20,319 nt of DNA from a virus (taxonomy: Duplodnaviria > Heunggongvirae > Uroviricota > Caudoviricetes). The stretch lies in IMG/VR virus record IMGVR_UViG_2651869781_000004; one strand, written 5' to 3'. The position numbers and the translations under genes are program-made. The notes beneath the pieces are model-generated. The model worked only from the letters and a program-made list of their open reading frames with translations. It searched no databases and was not told the DNA's origin. This document shows, piece by piece, positions 2,683 to 15,078 of the stretch; within the stretch, counting starts at the first letter, position 1, and every line of letters begins with the position of its first letter.

Positions 2683-3105
2683 ATGGCAAAAGTATTTACA
2701 CAAGAAGAGCGGGAAAAAATTAAAGGGCAGGTTGTTGAGCTAGTACGCCGGAGTGGGCGCGAGACGTTACGGCAACTGGAAGCCAAGACAGGTGCGACAA
2801 GATATCTGATGAGTGTTCTCGCCAGAGAGCTGGTTGCCAGTGGCGATGTATACAACTCTGGTTACGGGTTATTCCCGTCTGAACAGGCGCGTAAGGACTG
2901 GCAAAACGCCCGCAAAAAACTCTCAAGGGCAAATCTGAAGAAACCATCTGTGGTTGATCCTGACCTTATCTGGCCATTACCAGACGGAGAAATACGCCGC
3001 TACGACAGGCGTCAAAACATAATCTGTAGCGAGTGCCGGAAGAGCGAAGCTATGCAGCGTGTACTGGCTTTCTATCAGGGTAATTTTCAGAAGGTGCTGT
3101 TGTGA
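2683..3105 (+). CDS. Hypothetical protein
   Basis: ORF-track frame 2668..3105; ATG at 2683 preceded by GGAGG (6-nt spacing). 140 aa, basic, with CxxC near the C-terminus (CSECRK). Confidence 0.5.
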   Translation: MAKVFTQEEREKIKGQVVELVRRSGRETLRQLEAKTGATRYLMSVLARELVASGDVYNSGYGLFPSEQARKDWQNARKKLSRANLKKPSVVDPDLIWPLPDGEIRRYDRRQNIICSECRKSEAMQRVLAFYQGNFQKVLL

Positions 3106-3144
3106 GCCAAATTAACAATCGGAACTTCGTGAAGAGAAAGCATA

Positions 3145-3202
3145 ATCCAAATCTGAATAATTAAGTTCAGCACTGTAAATAAAATTTAATCCTTAACTGG
3201 AG
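3145..3202. repeat. About 58-bp gene-junction element, copy 1 (aatccaaatctgaataattaagttcagcactgtaaataaaatttaatccttaactggagg)
   Basis: About 85% identical to a second copy at 4411-4468. Both end in GGAGG; copy 2 begins in the last codons and stop of the upstream gene. Confidence 0.6.
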
Positions 3203-3210
3203 GTATATCT

Positions 3211-3423
3211 ATGTCAAATACACAGAAAATTATTAACACTGAAAAATATAACGAGTGGGTGAAAAAATTCTCTGAGCAGATTTTTAAAATTACTGGCGAC
3301 GAGAATGTGGCAAAAAATGAATTGGAACCGTGGACACCTGAAGGAAACGCACCAAATTATTGCTGGTGGGAGGTTGATCCGGTTGATGCTGCAAATGAAG
3401 CCATGAGTTACCACAACGATTAA
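3211..3423 (+). CDS. Hypothetical small protein (70 aa)
   Basis: ORF with the GGAGG of the junction repeat 8 nt upstream. AT-rich codon usage, moron-like. No family recognised. Confidence 0.45.
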   Translation: MSNTQKIINTEKYNEWVKKFSEQIFKITGDENVAKNELEPWTPEGNAPNYCWWEVDPVDAANEAMSYHND

Positions 3424-3428
3424 TGTCG

Positions 3429-3451
3429 GGAGGCCGCCCGAAAGGGCGGTA
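3429..3451 (+). promoter_or_regulatory. SD-embedded GAAA-tetraloop hairpin (ggaggccgcccgaaagggcggta), copy 1
   Basis: Stem GCCGCCC / GGGCGGT closing a GAAA loop. The GGAGG overlaps the 5' base of the stem and the next ATG (3456) lies 5 nt after the stem. Identical 23-mer at 4493-4515. Confidence 0.5.
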
Positions 3452-3455
3452 AGAA

Positions 3456-3674
3456 ATGACTACATTATTCAGAAAAGAATATCCGCAAAAAAGTAGGGCG
3501 ACAGAATTTTTGTTTCTCATTCTGTTTATCGTATTGATGATACCGATATCCCCTCTAATTTTTGTCTGGGCAATCGGGAAAATAATTGAGCCAGTTACTG
3601 AATTGTATAACGACGTGGTATGGGCGTCATTCAACACACTGCACAATAAAATTAATCCGTATAAGGAAAACTGA
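3456..3674 (+). CDS. Small hydrophobic (membrane) protein, 72 aa
   Basis: ORF immediately after the hairpin. Central hydrophobic stretch FLFLILFIVLMIPISPLIFVWAIG consistent with one or two transmembrane helices. Confidence 0.4.
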   Translation: MTTLFRKEYPQKSRATEFLFLILFIVLMIPISPLIFVWAIGKIIEPVTELYNDVVWASFNTLHNKINPYKEN

Positions 3675-3675
3675 T

Positions 3676-3939
3676 ATGGCAACTTTGACAAAAAAAGAAC
3701 GGGCATGGTTGAACGAATTACAGGAAGTTCTTGATCGCTGTCCATCACCGAAAAAAATTGGCTTTTACACCATTGGCGATAAAAGCATTTACCTGTATGA
3801 CCTACGCCGCATGGATGAAATCATGGAGGCTCTTGATAATCGTTCGTCGATGGATTGGTGTGTTGCTGTTCATGATATGAATGCAGGGTTTGATGAAAAG
3901 ATTTTGTTCCCCTCATCAGTTGAAAGCACTGCGGGTTAA
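3676..3939 (+). CDS. Hypothetical protein (87 aa)
   Basis: In frame with ORF-track 3586..3939. ATG at 3676 is preceded by AAGGA and sits 1 nt after the stop of the previous gene, consistent with translational coupling. Confidence 0.45.
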   Translation: MATLTKKERAWLNELQEVLDRCPSPKKIGFYTIGDKSIYLYDLRRMDEIMEALDNRSSMDWCVAVHDMNAGFDEKILFPSSVESTAG

Positions 3940-3949
3940 GGAGTAACAC

Positions 3950-4093
3950 ATGACCACTATTACCAAAGAACGTATTGAATTGTTCATTAAATTTTCAGGA
4001 GGCGGTACTGTGAGTGAAATTAGCTATCAGGCTTCAATTACCGCTGGCATTCGCATCAAAGGAGAGGAGCATGGAAATAAAACCAGAGGATGA
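3950..4093 (+). CDS. Possible small ORF (47 aa)
   Basis: ATG at 3950 with AAGGAG 6 nt upstream; ends TGA 4091-4093, overlapping the next gene's start. Below the ORF-track size cut-off; read by eye. Confidence 0.25.
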   Translation: MTTITKERIELFIKFSGGGTVSEISYQASITAGIRIKGEEHGNKTRG

Positions 4094-4427
4094 GTTAAGC
4101 AATATCGTTTTATTTCCGGTAAAAGAGGATGACCCTCGTAATCAGGTTAATTTTCTTTATGAGCCATCGGAAAGACCATATTGTCATCACGCCTCTGTCC
4201 GGGTTGACGAAAAAGAGCGTCAGGTCCGCTGTAAAATCTGCGGTGCAGTTGTGGAACCATTTGACTGGATGCTCTCTGTGGCGAAAAGAGAAACCAGACT
4301 GGCAGATGATGTAAGGCTCTTGCGTCAGGAGGAGCGGGAAAGGCGAAAAAATATAGAAAAGCTAATTCAGATTGAGCGTAACGCGAAAGCGCGGATACGC
4401 AGGGCGACAAAATCCAGAACTGAATAA
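4071..4427 (+). CDS. Hypothetical protein with a possible zinc-ribbon (CHH...CKIC) and basic coiled C-terminus
   Basis: ORF-track frame 4014..4427; ATG at 4071 preceded by AGGAGAGGAG. Cys/His cluster YCHHASVRVDEKERQVRCKICG; C-terminal RQEERERRKNIEKLIQIERNAKARIRR. Confidence 0.5.
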   Translation: MEIKPEDELSNIVLFPVKEDDPRNQVNFLYEPSERPYCHHASVRVDEKERQVRCKICGAVVEPFDWMLSVAKRETRLADDVRLLRQEERERRKNIEKLIQIERNAKARIRRATKSRTE

Positions 4428-4468
4428 TTAAATTTAGCTCTGTTAAAAATTTAATCCTTAACCGGAGG
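4411..4468. repeat. About 58-bp gene-junction element, copy 2
   Basis: aatccagaactgaataattaaatttagctctgttaaaaatttaatccttaaccggagg; aligns with 3145-3202. Confidence 0.6.
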
Positions 4469-4492
4469 GATTTCTGCACCCTCAGAACATCA

Positions 4493-4515
4493 GGAGGCCG
4501 CCCGAAAGGGCGGTA
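4493..4515 (+). promoter_or_regulatory. SD-embedded GAAA-tetraloop hairpin, copy 2 (identical 23-mer)
   Basis: ggaggccgcccgaaagggcggta is identical to 3429-3451. The next ATG (4521) is 6 nt after the stem. Confidence 0.5.
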
Positions 4516-4520
4516 GTTAA

Positions 4521-4703
4521 ATGCGAAAGTTTAAAATAATTATTGAAACGGGAATAGCCGGTGGAGATTTCGAGGATGAATTCGAAGTGGATGATGATGC
4601 GACGCCTGATGAAATACATGACGAAGCAAAAGATATTTTCTTTAACTACTGCAATTACTCATATCACGAAATAAAAGACGAAGAGGAAGAACAAAATGGC
4701 TGA
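4521..4703 (+). CDS. Highly acidic small protein (60 aa)
   Basis: ORF after hairpin copy 2. Very D/E-rich (GDFEDEFEVDDDATPDEIHDE...KDEEEEQNG). Confidence 0.4.
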   Translation: MRKFKIIIETGIAGGDFEDEFEVDDDATPDEIHDEAKDIFFNYCNYSYHEIKDEEEEQNG

Positions 4704-4872
4704 TTTTGGTTCAACTAAATACAACGTCGGTTTTGAAGAATGGCATGAACTGTTAATGGACTATGCAGAGTTATGTGGTGGCAGTGCTGCTGATGCTGAA
4801 GCATGGCGTGATGATTATGAAGCAGGAAAAACTCCGGTCGAAGCATATTGTGATGAGTGGGGCGATGAATGA
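4696..4872 (+). CDS. Acidic small protein (58 aa)
   Basis: ATG at 4696 overlaps the end of the previous ORF by 8 nt. MADFGSTKYNVGFEEWHELLMDYAELCGGSAADAEAWRDDYEAGKTPVEAYCDEWGDE; read by eye, below the track cut-off. Confidence 0.4.
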   Translation: MADFGSTKYNVGFEEWHELLMDYAELCGGSAADAEAWRDDYEAGKTPVEAYCDEWGDE

Positions 4873-5617: not shown

Positions 5618-5689
5618 GACTGCGGGTGCTTGAGGCTATCTGTCTCAGGCATGAACACCAAAAGGCAGATAGAGAAAAGCCCCAGTTAA

Positions 5690-5780
5690 CATTACGCGTC
5701 CTGCAAGACGCTTAACATTAATCTGAGGCCATATCTATGCGACACATAGAGATTAGCCTCTTACGGACCGAAAGGTCAAG
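5690..5780 (-). ncRNA. Candidate Sok-like antisense RNA region (approximate)
   Basis: Expected by analogy with hok/sok loci. Minus strand has TTGACC (complement of 5774-5779) and a GCGTC-N6-GACGC hairpin at 5696-5711. The -10 is weak and boundaries are not determined. Confidence 0.2.
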
Positions 5781-5796
5781 GAGAAGCAGGCTATGA
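5737..5796 (+). CDS. Short leader ORF (19 codons) ending on the hok start codon; mok-like coupling ORF
   Basis: ATG 5737 with TGAGG 9 nt upstream; its TGA stop (5794-5796) overlaps the hok ATG (5793-5795). Shorter than a typical mok. Confidence 0.3.
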   Translation: MRHIEISLLRTERSRRSRL

Positions 5797-7445: not shown

Positions 7446-7811
7446 ATGACTGAACGCATAGAATTTGTTTTGCCTTACCCGCCAACGGTGAACACTTACT
7501 GGCGACGTCGTGGCAGCACATATTTTGTATCAAAAGCCGGTGAGCGTTATCGCCGTGATGTGGCGCTTATTGTTCGCCAGCAGCGGCTGAAATTAAACCT
7601 GTCCGGAAGGCTGGCGATAAAGATTATTGCAGAGCCACCGGATAAACGTCGTCGTGACCTGGACAATATCCTGAAAGCACCACTGGATGCGCTGACGCAT
7701 GCCGGACTTCTCATAGACGACGAGCAGTTTGATGAAATCAATATTGTGCGCGGTCAGCGCGTTCCTGGGGGACGGCTGGGCGTGAAGATTTACAAAATTG
7801 AGAGTGAGTGA
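7446..7811 (+). CDS. rusA: Holliday-junction resolvase RusA
   Basis: 121 aa; LPYPPTVNTYWRRRG...PPDKRRRDLDNILKAPLDALTHAGLLIDDEQ matches the RusA family motif (RRRDLDN). Start adjoins the previous stop. Confidence 0.85.
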   Translation: MTERIEFVLPYPPTVNTYWRRRGSTYFVSKAGERYRRDVALIVRQQRLKLNLSGRLAIKIIAEPPDKRRRDLDNILKAPLDALTHAGLLIDDEQFDEINIVRGQRVPGGRLGVKIYKIESE

Positions 7812-7819
7812 TCGTAAAT

Positions 7820-8362
7820 ATGATATACCCGGAAATTACAGGCAAAAGCGGCGAGCATTTACGTCTAAAAACGCTGGAAGCCGTCTGGATCCAGGGGAAA
7901 TTACGGATGTGGGGGCGTTGGTCGTATATAGGTGGTGGCAAACCAGGAAATATGTTCAATCAGTTGCTGGCATCCAAAAAACTGACAAAAACCGCAATCA
8001 ATGAAGCCCTGCGTAGAATCAGGGAGTCAGGGATTGATAAACCAGAGCTGGAAGCATTCTTGCGAGAGATGATCGCTGGCAGACAGAAGAGCTGGTTGTC
8101 TCACTGTACTGATGCAGAGGCGTTACGCATTGATGGGGTGATAAGTAAAGCGCTTGCACGTTATCCTGGATTGATTGATATCCTGCGGCAAAGGTACGAA
8201 GGGCGGGGGATGAGTAAACGCAAAATGGCTGAATTGTTGAATGAGGTGCACCCGGAATGGTGTTTTAGTACATGCGAAAAGCGAATTGCTAATTGGTTGG
8301 CTGTTGCTGAATATGCGCTATACATCCCTATGCGAGAATCGTTTGCTCAAAAAATGTCTTGA
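7820..8362 (+). CDS. Putative late-gene antitermination protein (Q-like), assigned by position
   Basis: Lies between rusA and a strong intrinsic terminator that precedes the late genes, which is the canonical Q position. The sequence does not resemble lambda Q. Start ambiguous (GTG 7808 overlapping the rusA stop, or ATG 7820). Confidence 0.45.
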   Translation: MIYPEITGKSGEHLRLKTLEAVWIQGKLRMWGRWSYIGGGKPGNMFNQLLASKKLTKTAINEALRRIRESGIDKPELEAFLREMIAGRQKSWLSHCTDAEALRIDGVISKALARYPGLIDILRQRYEGRGMSKRKMAELLNEVHPEWCFSTCEKRIANWLAVAEYALYIPMRESFAQKMS

Positions 8363-8445
8363 TTTTTTACGCATAAACTGTTTCAATCCAGCTACGCTTC
8401 GCAAAGCTATACCGCGAGGCGAATAGCAGACATGGACACCTGAAA

Positions 8446-8470
8446 GAACCCGCTTTATGCGGGTTTTTTT
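8446..8470 (+). terminator. tR'-like intrinsic terminator downstream of the Q-like gene
   Basis: gaacccgc-tttat-gcgggtt followed by TTTTTTT, about 85 nt after the Q stop, as expected for the pR'/tR' unit. Confidence 0.7.
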
Positions 8471-8593
8471 ATGTCTGAAAAACGGCACAGAACATTAAAC
8501 GCGCTGGTAGTTGTGAATACTGGTCTTTCAGCTTGCTGGCTTTTTCGACAAGAGGTATTGGTATGTCACGTTAACCGGAAAAGGGAAAAAAGC

Positions 8594-8791
8594 ATGCTAA
8601 AACAGCAGGATATGACCGAAACCGCCAGAGTGGTGTTTAATGAATTAAGCGTCACCGAACCGGCGACCGTCGGGGAAATTGCGCAGAATACTTACCTTTC
8701 ACGCGAACGCTGCCAGTTAATACTGACTCAGCTTGTTATGGCGGGTCTGGCAGATTATCAGTTCGGTTGTTACAGACGCCTTCCGCAGTGA
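8594..8791 (+). CDS. Hypothetical small protein (65 aa), possibly winged-helix
   Basis: ATG at 8594 preceded by AAGGGAAAAAAGC. The ORF-track start at 8471 lies inside the terminator T-tract and is unlikely. Confidence 0.4.
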   Translation: MLKQQDMTETARVVFNELSVTEPATVGEIAQNTYLSRERCQLILTQLVMAGLADYQFGCYRRLPQ

Positions 8792-8941
8792 AGGCTTTTT
8801 AATTTGTGGTAATGGGCGGCTGGTGGGTGTTAGCGGCACCTGCCAGCCATCTGCTCATGCGTTGGGGTCACAAGCAAACCTCAGGCCCATCTGCTTTGCG
8901 CAAAAGCGGTATGAGCCTATCAGAGAAGTGCTTATTGATCT

Positions 8942-9991
8942 ATGATTAATACTGTAAAAATATCCAGTTGTGAGTTAATCAACGCTGATTGCCTGGAATT
9001 TATCCAGACCTTACCGGAAAACTCTGTCGATCTGATAGTCACAGACCCGCCATACTTTAAAGTGAAGCCCGAGGGCTGGGATAACCAGTGGGAGGGCGAC
9101 GATGATTACCTGAAATGGCTGGACCAGTGTCTGGCGCAGTTCTGGCGGGTACTGAAGCCTGCCGGAAGTCTTTACCTGTTCTGTGGTCATCGCCTGGCAT
9201 CTGACACCGAAATCATGATGCGTGAGCGCTTTAATGTGCTGAACCACATTATCTGGGCGAAGCCGTCCGGACGCTGGAACGGGTGCAATAAGGAAAGTCT
9301 GCGGGCGTATTTTCCGGCAACAGAGCGCATTCTGTTTGCAGAACATTATCAGGGACCGTATCGCCCGAAAGATGATGGCTATGTGGCACAGGGGCGCGAG
9401 CTAAAACAGCACGTCATGGCCCCGCTGATTTCTTACTTTCGTGATGCGCGTAAATCACTGGGAATAACGTCAAAACAGATAGCGGAAGCCACCGGAAAGA
9501 AAAACATGGCTTCGCACTGGTTTGGTACCAGTCAGTGGCAGTTACCGAACGAGGGTAATTACAACAAATTGCAGGCGTTGTTTGCGCGTGTTGCGGCAGA
9601 AAAACATCAGCGCGGGGAACTGGAAAAGCCACACCACCAGCTGGTCAGCACATACAGTGAGCTGAACCGGCAGTATACGGAACTGCTGAGTGAATATAAA
9701 AATTTGCGGCGGTATTTCGGTGTGACGGCGCAGGTTCCGTACACCGATGTCTGGACGCATAAACCGGTGCAGTACTATCCAGGGAAACATCCGTGCGAAA
9801 AACCGGCAGAAATGCTGCAGCAGATAATCAACGCGAGCAGTCGTCCGGGAGACCTGGTTGCAGATTTTTTTATGGGTTCAGGTTCAACGGTAAAAGCGGC
9901 GATGGCACTGGGGCGTTGTGCGATTGGTGTTGAGCTGGAGACAGGACGTTTTGAACAGACAGTCAGGGAAGTTCAGGATTTAATCGTTTGA
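8942..9991 (+). CDS. DNA N6-adenine/N4-cytosine methyltransferase (beta-class amino-MTase)
   Basis: Catalytic DPPY motif near the N-terminus (VTDPPYF) and AdoMet-binding FxGxG near the C-terminus (DFFMGSGSTVKAA); this motif order is typical of beta-class MTases. No adjacent restriction endonuclease gene seen. Confidence 0.85.
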   Translation: MINTVKISSCELINADCLEFIQTLPENSVDLIVTDPPYFKVKPEGWDNQWEGDDDYLKWLDQCLAQFWRVLKPAGSLYLFCGHRLASDTEIMMRERFNVLNHIIWAKPSGRWNGCNKESLRAYFPATERILFAEHYQGPYRPKDDGYVAQGRELKQHVMAPLISYFRDARKSLGITSKQIAEATGKKNMASHWFGTSQWQLPNEGNYNKLQALFARVAAEKHQRGELEKPHHQLVSTYSELNRQYTELLSEYKNLRRYFGVTAQVPYTDVWTHKPVQYYPGKHPCEKPAEMLQQIINASSRPGDLVADFFMGSGSTVKAAMALGRCAIGVELETGRFEQTVREVQDLIV

Positions 9992-10040
9992 AACGGATGG
10001 GATTGCAGAATTAATTACGCACCATTATTATTCTGCTACC

Positions 10041-10116
10041 GGCCCTTTAGCTCAGTGGTGAGAGCGAGCGACTCATAATCGCCAGGTCGCTGGTTCAAAT
10101 CCAGCAAGGGCCACCA
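10041..10116 (+). tRNA. ileZ: tRNA-Ile2 (anticodon CAU, lysidine type), ileZ-like
   Basis: 76 nt with CCA end. 7-bp acceptor stem GGCCCTT/AAGGGCC, D-arm GCTC...GAGC, anticodon loop CTCATAA, T-loop GGTTCAAATCC. Closely resembles E. coli ileX. Confidence 0.85.
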
Positions 10117-10123
10117 TCACATA

Positions 10124-10200
10124 CCGCCATTAGCTCATCGGCAGAGAGCGTCAGCTTTCGAAACTGGCTGTGTGGGGCCCGGGTCCCCGATGGCAATCCA
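10124..10200 (+). tRNA. argN: Atypical tRNA-Arg (anticodon UCG), argN-like
   Basis: D-arm GCTC...GAGC and anticodon loop TTTCGAA (UCG). However two acceptor-stem mismatches, a C-A pair closing the anticodon stem, and a T-loop CCCGGGT instead of TTCGAAT. Boundaries approximate. Confidence 0.45.
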
Positions 10201-10213
10201 TTATCTGCATTAT

Positions 10214-10290
10214 GCGTTGTTAGCTCAGCCGGACAGAGCAATTGCCTTCTAAGCAATCGGTCACTGGTTCGAATCCAGTACAACGCGCCA
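10214..10290 (+). tRNA. argO: tRNA-Arg (anticodon UCU), argO-like
   Basis: 77 nt with CCA. Acceptor GCGTTGT/ACAACGC, anticodon loop CTTCTAA (UCU), T-loop GGTTCGAATCC. Confidence 0.85.
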
Positions 10291-10427
10291 TATTCATTCT
10301 TCCAGATTTCTTCCGGCAGAGCCTTATACTGGAATATACCTGGCTCAGTATATTGTTGAAAATATTATATGTTTGTCAAAAATAAAAGTTCTGTTAAGTA
10401 TTGATTGAGTGTTTGTTATACGGTCTA

Positions 10428-10754
10428 ATGATTTTTTCAGTATTAAATATTTATCATTCATATGGTGTGGGTAGAGTGAATATTGATGAGGCGTCGGGGT
10501 GTTTCATCCTTAGGCAGCGTATTGATATAGTCAATGCAGCACGAGCAAAGGCCTTCAGCCGTTTGACAGTTTTGTTCTGTACTCCTGATCGTCTTTTGGG
10601 AAGAGACGTTATTATTCTGAATAGTGATGCTATACAGAGGGTTTGCGATGAGTTCATGGTTGCTAATTCAGAATTATTTGCTCTTGTTCAGGAGTACAAC
10701 AGAATAGCCAGGACCTGTGGTATGGATGAACTTCGGATTACTCATCTGGGGTAG
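10428..10754 (+). CDS. Hypothetical protein in the stx-equivalent slot (weakly supported)
   Basis: ORF-track frame 10401..10754 (TTG); first ATG at 10428. No clear SD, low GC, no signal peptide, no recognisable family. Confidence 0.3.
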   Translation: MIFSVLNIYHSYGVGRVNIDEASGCFILRQRIDIVNAARAKAFSRLTVLFCTPDRLLGRDVIILNSDAIQRVCDEFMVANSELFALVQEYNRIARTCGMDELRITHLG

Positions 10755-11146
10755 ATACATATCTGGATTATCACCTGTTACGGTAAAAAGTGATTGCTTA
10801 CTGTTTTTGTGAATGGCATTGCAGCAGCCGGATAATGTCAGTGCTGGCTGACGGTGTGCTGGTGGCGGGTGTGGTGGTTGTTGCTTTCCCGTTGCTGAAA
10901 AAGAAAACGCCAGACTGTTAGCCGGGTATCAGTTAGCGGGAGAAATTTTTAAATACTTCACAATTCAGGCGGTTGACTGTTGTCTGGTTTGCGGGGAGTT
11001 TGTTAAAAGAAACTGGCATGGTGAATCCCCCTGTGCGGAGGGGCAATCAGCGAGTAGGTATATGGGATAATCGCGGATTCAGGTGCTGGTACTGAATTCA
11101 CCGGGAGGCACCCGGCACCATGCAATGGCACATAGCGCCACTCTCC

Positions 11147-11172
11147 AGCCCCTCTCCGGAGGGGCTGTTTAT
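11147..11172 (+). terminator. Putative intrinsic terminator (agcccctc-tccg-gaggggct followed by a T-rich tract)
   Basis: 8-bp GC-rich stem with tetraloop followed by GTTTAT. Lies between the two convergent cargo ORFs. Confidence 0.4.
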
Positions 11173-11201
11173 ATTGATTTTGTCAGATGTGAGTAAACTC
11201 C

Positions 11202-11537
11202 TTATGGACTTTGTTGTTTTAGTCCATAAGGACATATTTGCAGAGTGCAACGGTTATTAAAGCATTCATTCAATACGTTATCTGTATTTGTAGGGCATTC
11301 CTGGCTGTTTTTGATTAAATTCCAGAATGTTTTATTGAATGGTACTACGTTGTAAATGGTTACAGGTAGCACTTTGTTATTGAGCATGATGCCTGTGTGA
11401 GTCAGTGTAAATATACTTTCAGGAGGTAAGAAAGCATCCGATTGATACCAGATTATTAATTTTATTTTACTCCATATGACTGAAAAAGATATTCCGCATG
11501 ATGGCTGGATAACTGTATCAATCACAATCCACTTCAT
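11202..11537 (-). CDS. Hypothetical protein (111 aa) in the stx-equivalent slot, opposite strand
   Basis: Minus-strand ORF with a strong SD (AAGGAAAG 5 nt before the ATG). Six Cys residues, several in the C-terminal third ([24 protein letters not shown]). A perfect 10-bp inverted repeat (11201-11210 / 11221-11230) overlaps its stop. No family recognised. Confidence 0.45.
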
Positions 11538-11796
11538 TTACTTTCCTTGTTTATGCCTTGCTGGTGATGTTCTGAAAAGTATAAATGATATTTTTGAATT
11601 AAACCATAGAGCAGAATTATTTTTCTGATGTTGTTTATTGTTTATTTAAATACAGGGTGGTTTATATCTCGTCTTGTAGTTTATCCATGCATATCTGCTT
11701 GATAATCAGGTTTTTATTTAAGGTATGGTTTTGTGTTTTTTCTGTATTACATGTCAGGTATTTTAAAGAATTATTTTTCAGATGGTGGAAAGAACC

Positions 11797-13647
11797 ATGG
11801 CATTTAAACACTATGATGTTGTCAGGGCGGCGTCGCCGTCAGATCTTGCGGAAAAGCTGACACATAAACTGAAAGAGGGCTGGCAGCCGTTTGGTAGTCC
11901 GGTGGCCATAACCCCTTATACTCTGATGCAGGCGATTACAGCAGAAGGTGATGTGGTGGTCAGTGGTGCAACTGAGCCGGATTGGTACTACGTCATCGTA
12001 CTGGCCGGGCAGTCCAATGCCATGGCTTACGGTGAAGGGCTTCCGCTGCCGGATTCATACGATGCTCCGGATCCGCGCATTAAACAGCTGGCGCGCCGCA
12101 GTACAGTGACGCCGGGTGGGGCTGCCTGCAGATATAACGATATTATTCCGGCCGACCACTGCCTGCATGATGTGCAGGATATGAGTACGCTGAATCATCC
12201 GAAGGCAGACCTGAGCAAAGGGCAGTACGGCTGTGTCGGCCAGGGCTTACATATTGCCAAAAAACTGCTTCCGTATATCCCGAATAACGCGGGGATCCTG
12301 CTGGTACCATGCTGTCGTGGTGGTTCGGCATTCACCCAGGGCACGGAGGGGACATTCAGCGAGTCCACGGGGGCCAGTCAGGATTCGGCTCGCTGGGGAG
12401 TGGGTAAGCCGTTATATCAGGATCTGCTTTTCCGCACGAAGGCAGCATTGCAGAAAAACCCGAAAAACGTTTTGCTGGCGATATGCTGGATGCAGGGGGA
12501 ATTCGATATGACGAATGCCAGTTACGCCCAGCAGCCAGCAGCATTTCTTGCAATGGTACAGCAGTTCCGTGCTGACTTTGCCGGGCTGGCGGCGCAGTGT
12601 CACGGTGGAAGTCCGGCATCAGTCCCCTGGATTTGTGGCGACACGACATACGCGTGGAAACAAGAACACGGTACGCAATATGAAGTGGTATATGGTGCAT
12701 ATAAAGGTAAAGAATCCCAGCAGATTTATTTTGTTCCCTTTATGACCGATGGTAGCGGAGTTAATACACCGACAAACAACCCGTCAGAAGATCCTGATAT
12801 TGCCGGGTCTGGTTATTACGGTTCGGCATCCCGAACGAACAAAAACTGGGTATCATCAAATCGCCCGACGCATTTCAGCTCATGGGCGCGTCGTGGCATT
12901 ATTCCCGATCGTATGGCAACTGCTATTCTGAACGTAGCCGGTCGCACCTTAGCCTTCATTAGTGGTAAGGCACCGGAAATCAAACCCTCGCCCGGCGGCG
13001 ACACGCCATCGGGGCCGTCTGAAGATGCATCCGTACGCACAATCTCCCTGTTGCCGACAGCCGGAGATGCTGCTGCGCAGGGCTGGAGCATTAAGAATGG
13101 CGGAATTCAGTTGTCAGATGGTGTATTTAAGATCACCAAGCAGAGCAATAAAACCTGGTCCCTGATGCATCCGGTGGATGACGCAATTACCCTGCTGACA
13201 CAGGGCGGCAGACTGACCTGTAAGTTCCGCCTCTCAGGCGCACTGACCAACAATCAGTTCGGGCTGGGGATTTATCTGTATACGGACGCTCCCGTTCCTG
13301 ATGATGTGGCGATGACGGGTACTGGTAATCCGTTCCTGATGTCTTACTTCACTCAGACCACTGACGGCAGAGTGAATCTGATGCATCACAGGAAAGCCGG
13401 AAACACGAAGCTGGGGGAGTTCGGCGATAACGGTAACGACTGGCAGACGCTGGAGCTGGTGTTCACCGCCGGCAGTGCCACGGTTACTCCGAAACTGAAT
13501 GGAGTGGCTGGCCCGGCATTCCAGGTTATAAAAGACAGTCTGACACTGGGACTGAATGCGCTGACGCTGACGGATGTTACAAAAAATGCAGCGTATGGCG
13601 TTGAGATAGAAAGTCTGGTGCTGGAGATAAATGCACCGGCAGCATAA
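11797..13647 (+). CDS. nanS-p: Sialate (9-O-acetyl-Neu5Ac) O-acetylesterase, NanS-p-like
   Basis: 616 aa. SGNH/SASA esterase motif GQSN (VLAGQSNAMAYGEG) after a DUF1737-type N-terminus, in the position immediately upstream of the lysis cassette that NanS-p occupies in Stx phages. ATG 11797 preferred (GGTGGAAAG upstream) over the track start 11782. Confidence 0.75.
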   Translation: MAFKHYDVVRAASPSDLAEKLTHKLKEGWQPFGSPVAITPYTLMQAITAEGDVVVSGATEPDWYYVIVLAGQSNAMAYGEGLPLPDSYDAPDPRIKQLARRSTVTPGGAACRYNDIIPADHCLHDVQDMSTLNHPKADLSKGQYGCVGQGLHIAKKLLPYIPNNAGILLVPCCRGGSAFTQGTEGTFSESTGASQDSARWGVGKPLYQDLLFRTKAALQKNPKNVLLAICWMQGEFDMTNASYAQQPAAFLAMVQQFRADFAGLAAQCHGGSPASVPWICGDTTYAWKQEHGTQYEVVYGAYKGKESQQIYFVPFMTDGSGVNTPTNNPSEDPDIAGSGYYGSASRTNKNWVSSNRPTHFSSWARRGIIPDRMATAILNVAGRTLAFISGKAPEIKPSPGGDTPSGPSEDASVRTISLLPTAGDAAAQGWSIKNGGIQLSDGVFKITKQSNKTWSLMHPVDDAITLLTQGGRLTCKFRLSGALTNNQFGLGIYLYTDAPVPDDVAMTGTGNPFLMSYFTQTTDGRVNLMHHRKAGNTKLGEFGDNGNDWQTLELVFTAGSATVTPKLNGVAGPAFQVIKDSLTLGLNALTLTDVTKNAAYGVEIESLVLEINAPAA

Positions 13648-13940: not shown

Positions 13941-14147
13941 ATGGAAAAAATCACAACAGGTGTGTCATACACCACGTCAGCGGTGGGGACGGGATACTGT
14001 TTACTGCAGCTGCTGGACAAAGTCTCTCCGTCCCAGTGGGTGGCAATAGGTGTGCTGGGGAGTCTGCTGTTTGGCCTGCTGACGTATCTGACAAACCTTT
14101 ATTTCAAGATTAAAGAAGATAAGCGCAAGGCTGCGAGAGGTGAATAA
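13941..14147 (+). CDS. S: Holin (S-like, Stx-phage 933W type)
   Basis: 68 aa; [68 protein letters not shown], nearly identical to the recalled holin of Stx phages. Stop overlaps the endolysin start. Confidence 0.85.
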
Positions 14148-14644
14148 TGCCTCCATCATTACGAAAAGCCGTTGCTGCTGCTATTGGTGGTGGGGCTGTT
14201 GCCATAGCGTCTGTGCTCATCACTGGTCCGAGTGGTGACGATGGCCTGGAAGGTGTCAGCTACATACCATACGAAGATATCGTTGGCGTATGGACTGTAT
14301 GTCACGGACACACCGGAAAAGACATCATGCCCGGTAAAACGTATACCGAAGCAGAATGCAAAGCCCTCCTGAATAAAGACCTTGCCACGGTCGCCAGACA
14401 AATAAACCCGTACATCAACGTCGATATACCGGAAACAACGCGCGGCGCTCTTTACTCGTTCGTTTACAACGTGGGCGCTGGCAATTTCAGAACATCGACG
14501 CTTCTTCGCAAAATAAACCAGGGCGATATCAAAGGCGCATGTGATCAGCTACGGCGCTGGACATACGCTGGCGGTAAGCAATGGAAAGGGCTGATGACTC
14601 GCCGTGAGATTGAGCGTGAAGTCTGTTTGTGGGGGCAACAATGA
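14147..14644 (+). CDS. R: SAR-endolysin (lysozyme, glycoside hydrolase family 24)
   Basis: N-terminal Gly/Ala-rich signal-anchor-release segment ([20 protein letters not shown]) followed by a T4/P22-type lysozyme core ([18 protein letters not shown]). Confidence 0.85.
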
Positions 14645-15078
14645 GCAGAGTAACCGCGATTATCTACGTTCTGGTCATCTGCCTCATCGTCTGCCTTTCA
14701 TGGGCTGTTAATCATTACCGTGATAACGCCATCGCCTACAAAGAGCAGCGCGATAAAGCCACATCCATCATCGCTGATATGCAGAAGCGGCAACGTGATG
14801 TAGCAGAACTTGACGCCAGATACACAAAGGAGCTTGCTGATGCTAATGCGACTATCGAAAGTCTCCGTGCTGATGTTTCTGCTGGGCGTAAGCGCCTGCA
14901 AGTCGCCGCCACCTGTGCAAAGTCAACGACCGGAGCCAGCGGCATGGGCAATGGAGAAACCCCAGGACTTACAGCAGATGCTGAACTCAATTATTACCGT
15001 CTCCGAAGTGGAATCGACAGGATAACCGCGCAGGTTAACTACTTGCAGGAGTACATTAGGACGCAATGCCTTCGATGA
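14641..15078 (+). CDS. Rz: Spanin, inner-membrane subunit (Rz)
   Basis: ATG 14641 overlaps the endolysin stop. N-terminal transmembrane helix ([18 protein letters not shown]) then a coiled-coil periplasmic domain. Confidence 0.8.
14840..15025 (+). CDS. Rz1: Spanin, outer-membrane lipoprotein subunit (Rz1), embedded in Rz in the +1 frame
   Basis: Embedded ORF with lipobox (LLGVSAC) and Pro-rich mature region ([18 protein letters not shown]). Exact start (14810/14840/14846) uncertain. Confidence 0.55.

Follow-up and report, generated by a model that had tools for sequence, protein, structure and literature searches.

The late region of Shiga toxin (Stx) phages has a characteristic order, in which the antiterminator gene Q, the promoter pR' with its terminator tR', tRNA genes, the cargo site with stxA and stxB, the esterase gene nanS-p and the lysis genes S, R and Rz follow one another on one strand. 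An STnc100 element downstream of stx2B has been equated in the literature with the Hfq-bound small RNA (sRNA) EcOnc27/sRNA103, and STnc100 has also been related to PasD. In prophages of enterohemorrhagic Escherichia coli (EHEC), the spacer between this element and nanS-p encodes the antisense anti-sRNA of a convergent pair (AsxR/EcOnc27, AgvB/EcOnc06), as reported by Tree et al. 2014 (PMC4104026) and in a later review. Stx phages have further been described to raise RpoS via StxS, an sRNA derived from the pR' transcript. In E. coli CFT073, the product of iraL, which is the gene c1429 (PMC12890032) on the potB island, acts as an anti-adaptor of RssB and stabilizes RpoS in logarithmic phase (Hryckowian et al. 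2014, mBio; PMC4045071). The stretch of DNA analyzed here, 20,319 nucleotides of a caudoviricete record (IMG/VR IMGVR_UViG_2651869781_000004) and referred to as the window below, is the late region of a lambdoid E. coli prophage of the Stx-phage type without stxAB, and its cargo interval at positions 10291-11796 brings together iraL, an STnc100-family sRNA and two further small genes.

An initial annotation of this interval had taken it for the toxin slot filled with unrecognized cargo. This did not hold up, because the 111-amino-acid (aa) open reading frame (ORF) is assigned to IraL, the hairpins match the Rfam family STnc100, the mini-ORF matches the Pfam family DUF3927, and the interval as a whole is widespread. 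Three of its four features thus fall into named families by sequence comparison. We consider it very probable, at about 0.9, that the interval is a pair of moron cassettes, known and widely shared, which lies at the cargo site downstream of pR'. What was computed here are the sequence identities, the assignments to families, the boundaries, the distribution and the coding selection; RssB binding, RpoS stabilization and the transcription start were taken from the literature on the identical protein.

The following scheme would account for the arrangement. The left cassette (10291-11176, plus strand) would comprise the 92-aa gene, the DUF3927/TciB-like gene, whose predicted product is a small membrane protein, and STnc100, a presumably Hfq-binding sRNA, with its terminator; as it is oriented like the late operon, antitermination by Q should allow it to be read from pR', and lysogens would make STnc100 too. 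The right cassette (11168-11796, minus strand) would express iraL in the lysogen from its own sigma-70 promoter. IraL would then bind the adaptor RssB and block the delivery of RpoS to ClpXP, which, going by the literature on the identical protein, would raise RpoS in exponential growth. On induction, late transcription would cross iraL in antisense direction and might interfere with it. Finally, iraL would substitute for the short spacer of Stx phages that encodes the AsxR/AgvB anti-sRNA partner.

The iraL cassette and its position

The minus-strand ORF matches NF007393, the NCBIfam model for IraM, with 162 bits (cutoff 121) over residues 1-110 of 111, and all 111 residues are the same as those of WP_000871291.1 ("anti-adapter protein IraM") from the CFT073 prophage at potB. 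An alignment with K-12 IraM gives 66 identities in 112 columns, or 58.9% (62% over 107 residues), and as 58.9% is the value that was published for IraL (PMC4045071), this supports the identification as iraL. RefSeq labels the product as IraM. As far as can be judged from its sequence, the ORF is iraL, an already characterized gene whose product stabilizes RpoS; binding to RssB in a two-hybrid assay and the stability of RpoS were determined for the identical protein (PMC4045071).

IraL and K-12 IraM belong to the same NF007393 family, and both genes lie in or beside prophage DNA. IraL differs in a C-terminal extension of four residues, and the upstream regions of the two genes are unrelated, which implies that their regulation differs. 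K-12 IraM is an anti-adaptor that is induced by Mg2+ starvation, and its gene is PhoP-dependent. Over the stop codon of iraL lies a 12-bp hairpin that likely serves as 3' end or stabilizer of the iraL mRNA. The pairing of this hairpin is perfect, it encodes the protein end PYGLK...SP, and it accounts for the four-residue extension of IraL over IraM.

The closest described arrangement is that of CFT073 itself. There as here, DUF3927, STnc100, iraL and the DUF1737 start of nanS-p follow ileZ/argN/argO tRNAs in a lambdoid prophage, and over the interval the identity to the CFT073 potB prophage is 99%. The phage backbones, however, are not the same: in the window, a DNA methylase precedes the tRNAs, nanS-p has its full length and the holin is of the P21 type, whereas the CFT073 prophage has an IS200 there and a truncated nanS-p. 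In the IraL paper the location is given only as "the potB genomic island" and not as the equivalent of the Stx moron site (PMC4045071).

The boundaries of the cassette can be read from alignments. Homology to an Stx1 phage, to the stx-negative phage phi296 and to a related late region (L009) breaks off with the STnc100 terminator at about 11167 and sets in again from 11797, the ATG of nanS-p, and it follows that a 629-bp iraL cassette replaces the spacer of about 210 bp. The EHEC anti-sRNAs AsxR and AgvB (RF02702, RF02703) had no match at E <= 1 within 8300-12000, and an anti-sRNA is absent between STnc100 and nanS-p. The locus resembles the EHEC sRNA dyads in using the same moron site of pR' and the same sense-strand partner, and in placing an antisense-oriented gene before the conserved downstream ORF. 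It differs in that the convergent partner of STnc100 is the protein gene iraL in the window and an anti-sRNA in the EHEC prophages. The alignments indicate that iraL stands where the anti-sRNA partner would be and likewise converges on STnc100. That iraL occupies the Stx moron site in place of an anti-sRNA is not stated explicitly in the IraL literature consulted; it is a descriptive point and not a new kind of system. The iraL insertion has also replaced the strong ribosome-binding site, GGAGG, that Stx-type phages have ahead of nanS-p (window 11780-11799, plus strand). The window has GGTGGAAAGAACC ahead of the nanS-p ATG, and an in-frame ATG at 11782 makes the ORF five codons longer.

The published mRNA end from rapid amplification of 5' cDNA ends (5' RACE), ACATCACCAGCAAGGCATAAACAAGGAAA, is found in the window and places the start site of iraL at 11570 on the minus strand, with a 33-nucleotide leader and the same TATACT element at -10 as in CFT073. 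The mapping had been done in uninduced CFT073 cells in log phase (PMC4045071). iraL accordingly appears to possess its own autonomous sigma-70 promoter, and the variant of it in the window is presumably active. With a promoter mapped in uninduced log-phase cells and an orientation antisense to the late operon, iraL would be a moron expressed in the lysogen and not a Q-driven late gene, and IraL would behave accordingly. Q-antiterminated transcription would run antisense to the gene, since it lies on the opposite strand. The view that whatever sits at this site is expressed on induction through pR' and Q therefore fails for iraL, which is on the minus strand and has a sigma-70 promoter that was mapped in CFT073; the argument from induction can apply only to what lies on the plus strand, namely the 92-aa ORF, DUF3927 and STnc100. 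A simple sigma-70 scan missed the mapped promoter, and its minus-strand match at 11644-11616 is another site.

According to the literature, a fur mutant of CFT073 contains more IraL, and so do cells shifted to 37 °C. Upstream of iraL, the best match to a Fur box had 11 of 19 positions, which is no better than in shuffled sequence, and this candidate was rejected. A PhoP-box-like direct repeat with one mismatch, TGTTTATTGTTTATTTA, lies at 11632-11648 (plus strand), upstream of the start site of iraL by 62-78 bp; at least one such repeat occurs in 35% of shuffles, and the candidate was dismissed as not significant.

The cassette in late-operon orientation

The GC-rich hairpins at 10987-11176 are assigned to the Rfam sRNA family STnc100. 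The match to RF02076 spans the full length of the model (positions 1-206), a terminator hairpin at 11146-11167 closes the element, and its fold was predicted. Experimental evidence exists for related copies: EcOnc27 was detected by Hfq crosslinking and analysis of cDNA (Hfq-CRAC) and by Northern blot, and the EDL933 copies by RNA sequencing and Northern blot, the latter copies being expressed without induction. In Stx phages, STnc100 is found in the same position between the moron coding sequence and nanS-p, and in the Stx1 phage it stands directly 3' of stx1B, with a score of 177 bits compared with 132 bits for the copy in the window.

In the locus of that Stx1 phage (AP005153), position 4296 is the end of stx1B, STnc100 follows at 4375-4584 and the nanS-p homologue begins at 4807, and in phage phi296 STnc100 is located between argO and NanS. 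This shared order defines the slot for coding cargo as the segment from argO to STnc100, which in the window is taken up by the 92-aa ORF and DUF3927. Some late regions contain two STnc100 copies (L007 at 4165-4358 and 4634-4822; L009 at 1344-1556 and 4650-4839), each of which directly follows a different cargo cassette, either a TolA-like gene or a paralogue of the 92-aa gene. STnc100 may be a repeated cassette end and a recombination site for cargo swapping.

The 28-codon hydrophobic mini-ORF of the initial annotation (10835-10921) is the ATG-started version of a 43-aa ORF, and RefSeq annotates both lengths. The ORF matches Pfam PF13064 with 95.6 bits (cutoff 25) and phrog_1470, "TciB-like", with E = 8e-13. 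Beside other DUF3927 genes, a close counterpart is the TciA-TciB cargo of phage JLK-2012, in which Q and the tRNAs likewise come first and a DUF3927 ORF stands immediately before an STnc100-like region, with yjhS/nanS-p farther on. The gene that precedes DUF3927 is different, being TciA in JLK-2012 and the 92-aa phrog_2873 gene in the window. A literature search for "TciB" returned only unrelated papers.

The only piece of the interval that stays unexplained is the 92-aa plus-strand gene. It matches phrog_2873 with E = 2e-68, a family to which no function is assigned. Since the members of a paralogue clade with 52-59% protein identity begin at the position of GTG 10476 and keep the frame without insertions or deletions, the conserved core is 92 aa long. 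At about 33% nucleotide divergence, the ratio of nonsynonymous to synonymous substitution rates (dN/dS) is 0.28 in frame and 1.18 and 0.76 in the shifted frames, with 25, 24 and 44 differences at the three codon positions; for scale, dN/dS is 0.155 for the iraL/iraM pair. The substitution pattern argues that the ORF is a real gene under purifying selection. In the related late region L009, a gene for an AraC-type regulator and an element of the IS3 family occupy the same slot (1933-2658 and 2762-3990), and the insertion sequence lies just upstream of the 92-aa paralogue, which has thereby acquired a chimeric N-terminus.

Of the two ORFs for which structure prediction had been proposed, the 111-aa ORF led to a known structure, the solved IraM chain 8twd_A (E = 9e-32), and the 92-aa ORF did not lead to a significant fold. 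The AlphaFold2 model of the latter has a predicted local distance difference test (pLDDT) score of 85 and shows a helix, a beta-hairpin and a second helix, and Foldseek against the PDB returned nothing at E <= 0.001. The best Foldseek match was a prefoldin beta fold at E = 0.11, which reflects a generic helical hairpin and was not used for a functional call. No Pfam family was assigned to the ORF, and none scored above threshold on distant members of its family, which in an exhaustive profile search comprised 19 representatives down to 32% identity, none of them informative. PADLOC gave no defense-system match for three proteins of the interval including this one, and RefSeq/PGAP annotates nothing over 10476-10754 in the genomes inspected.

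One could take the missing assignments of this ORF, together with its location at the Stx moron site, as a sign that the slot holds unrecognized, possibly toxin-like or otherwise new cargo that is driven by pR' and Q on induction. For iraL, STnc100 and DUF3927 this is already refuted, as named families could be assigned to these three of the four features, iraL is experimentally characterized (PMC4045071), and it runs antisense to the late operon, with a probable promoter of its own. Toxin A or B subunit families had no Pfam match among the ORFs of the interval, in a scan that did not extend to signal peptides, and the module occurs in hundreds of genomes, commensal as well as uropathogenic strains included. 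We think that novel cargo is a very improbable description of the interval. On the reading as a pair of known cassettes, the 92-aa protein, DUF3927 and STnc100 could form a moron operon that is expressed late and acts, for example, in exclusion, in the timing of lysis or in host takeover.

Distribution, integrity and late-region context

The initial annotation had left open whether the interval is a conserved module or a private insertion. Of 5426 complete E. coli genomes, 863 contain no less than 80% of the interval's length, with best matches that are mostly 95-99% identical, and the interval is hence a shared module. The iraL cassette was found in 1446 of these genomes and the left part, including the DNA of the 92-aa gene, in 1186 (about 22%). 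Sequenced phages carry the halves separately, the left one being found in mEp460_ev081 and STnc100 with iraL in vB_EcoS-640R1 and its relatives, from which it can be concluded that the module is a mosaic whose two halves overlap at STnc100. iraL stands at the same position in the vB_EcoS-* phage records, and these comparisons indicate that it moves between different lambdoid backbones.

Several observations weigh against the view of two functional cassettes. The -35 region of the iraL promoter has a 1-nucleotide deletion relative to the tested CFT073 allele (GGTTTA-ATTC versus GGTTTACATTC), position -1 is A where CFT073 has G, and the spacer between the Shine-Dalgarno sequence and the ATG ends in GT where CFT073 has CC. 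For the 92-aa ORF, no convincing Shine-Dalgarno sequence precedes any candidate start, RefSeq leaves the ORF unannotated, and a comparison with CFT073 gives four nonsynonymous changes and one synonymous change, which are small numbers. The targets of STnc100 are not established in the literature.

The promoter deletion and the excess of nonsynonymous changes, to which a degenerate middle tRNA and a small pseudogene fragment marked by RefSeq inside the STnc100 region can be added, would suit a decaying scar, in which a defective prophage retains relic genes and the promoter indel has silenced iraL. Yet iraL is intact and its protein 100% identical to the functional allele, and the cassette is at least 80% complete in 1428 of the 1446 genomes, with an identity at the best place of at least 95% in 1419 and of 90-95% in 27. 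The 92-aa ORF is open and has the low dN/dS given above across its whole divergence, sequenced vB_EcoS-* phages keep iraL at the same position, and STnc100 scores over its full-length model. Intact ORFs under selection rule out a mere deletion scar, in line with the initial annotation, which had spoken of cargo, and we give a decaying remnant hardly any credence compared with the pair of moron cassettes.

The surroundings of the interval are of the Stx-phage type, as had been proposed. The genes from Q to the lysis cassette follow each other on one strand in the expected order, as seen from Pfam, ARAGORN and reading of the sequence (Table 1), and both flanks of the cargo align with an Stx1 phage. 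The proposed interval of about 1.5 kb of AT-rich DNA without stxAB was found as described, with a GC content of 0.39 against 0.487 for the whole window and of 0.32 for 11168-11796, and it is filled by other identified genes. The ORFs 10401/10428-10754 (plus strand) and 11202-11537 (minus strand), the 28-codon ORF and the GC-rich hairpins were also present where they had been placed. The series of tRNAs proposed as ileZ, argN and argO is intact for the ileZ-like and argO copies only; the copy in the argN position is degenerate, with many substitutions relative to the intact tRNA-Arg of the otherwise 99% identical CFT073 copy.

Directly after the Q-like gene, a hairpin followed by a T-run would, from its position, be tR'. 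The region between the Q-like gene and this putative terminator (8396-8469, plus strand) gave a weak, sub-threshold match of 21.6 bits to the sRNA IsrK, and by its position it corresponds to the StxS/6S-type pR' transcript. A sok antisense RNA of a hokD-type toxin-antitoxin locus was found in the early-right part of the prophage, at 5624-5795 (plus strand; Rfam, 106.7 bits).

Table 1. Features of the late region and of the cargo interval, with positions in the window
Feature	Position	Strand	Evidence and remarks
Q-like late antiterminator gene	7808-8362	+	Pfam DUF1133, 342 bits; Phage_antitermQ, 28.3 bits (cutoff 26)
Putative tR', intrinsic terminator of the short pR' transcript	8447-8470	+	Stem AACCCGC / GCGGGTT and T-run, read from sequence
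DNA methyltransferase gene	8942-9991	+	Pfam N6_N4_Mtase, 152.6 bits
tRNA with CAT anticodon, ileZ-type	10041-10116	+	ARAGORN; Rfam tRNA, 72.5 bits; RefSeq tRNA-Ile in identical copies
Degenerate tRNA, argN position	10124-10197	+	22.2 bits (gathering score 29); no ARAGORN call
tRNA-Arg (TCT), argO-type	10214-10290	+	ARAGORN; Rfam, 70.1 bits
Gene of the conserved 92-aa protein	10476-10754	+	GTG 10476; in-frame upstream starts possible at ATG 10428 and TTG 10401
Gene of the DUF3927/TciB-like small hydrophobic protein	10790-10921	+	43 aa from GTG 10790; 28 aa from ATG 10835
STnc100-family sRNA (EcOnc27/sRNA103/PasD relatives)	10987-11176	+	Rfam RF02076, 132.4 bits (gathering score 47)
iraL cassette	11168-11796	-	629 bp, 32% GC; replaces the STnc100-nanS-p spacer (about 210 bp) of Stx-type phages
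Hairpin over the iraL stop codon, 12 bp	11196-11232	-	RNA fold of 11140-11240 (minus strand): -37.2 kcal/mol, z = -6.8
iraL, coding for an RssB anti-adaptor (IraM family), 111 aa	11202-11537	-	NCBIfam NF007393; identity with CFT073
iraL promoter	11570-11610	-	Start site 11570; -10 TATACT; -35 region GGTTTA
nanS-p-type sialate O-acetylesterase gene	11797-13647	+	Pfam DUF1737, SASA and DUF6645; RefSeq "SASA family carbohydrate esterase"
P21-type holin gene	13941-14147	+	Pfam Phage_holin_2_1; lysis cassette (13941-15078)
Lysozyme gene	14147-14644	+	Pfam Phage_lysozyme; lysis cassette
Rz gene	14629-15078	+	Pfam Phage_lysis; lysis cassette

Possible bearing on RpoS and lysogenic conversion

The cargo of this site is already known, given that the characterization of iraL dates from 2014, Rfam lists the sRNA and the module is common. 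The comparison adds that iraL, for which usually only "the potB island" is named, is located exactly at the Shiga toxin moron site, and that standard annotation calls it IraM and skips its conserved 92-aa neighbor. On a more far-reaching reading, prophages would have repeatedly acquired means to raise RpoS at this site, with StxS in the Stx phages and with IraL replacing the anti-sRNA in their stx-negative relatives. RpoS elevation could then be a selected lysogenic-conversion trait of the phage group, a link that is speculative; taken together, a late moron operon of unexplored function and RpoS elevation as such a trait form a tentative and rather doubtful picture. The finding helps to interpret differences in the RpoS level among E. 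coli strains and to annotate the stx-negative relatives of the Stx phages.

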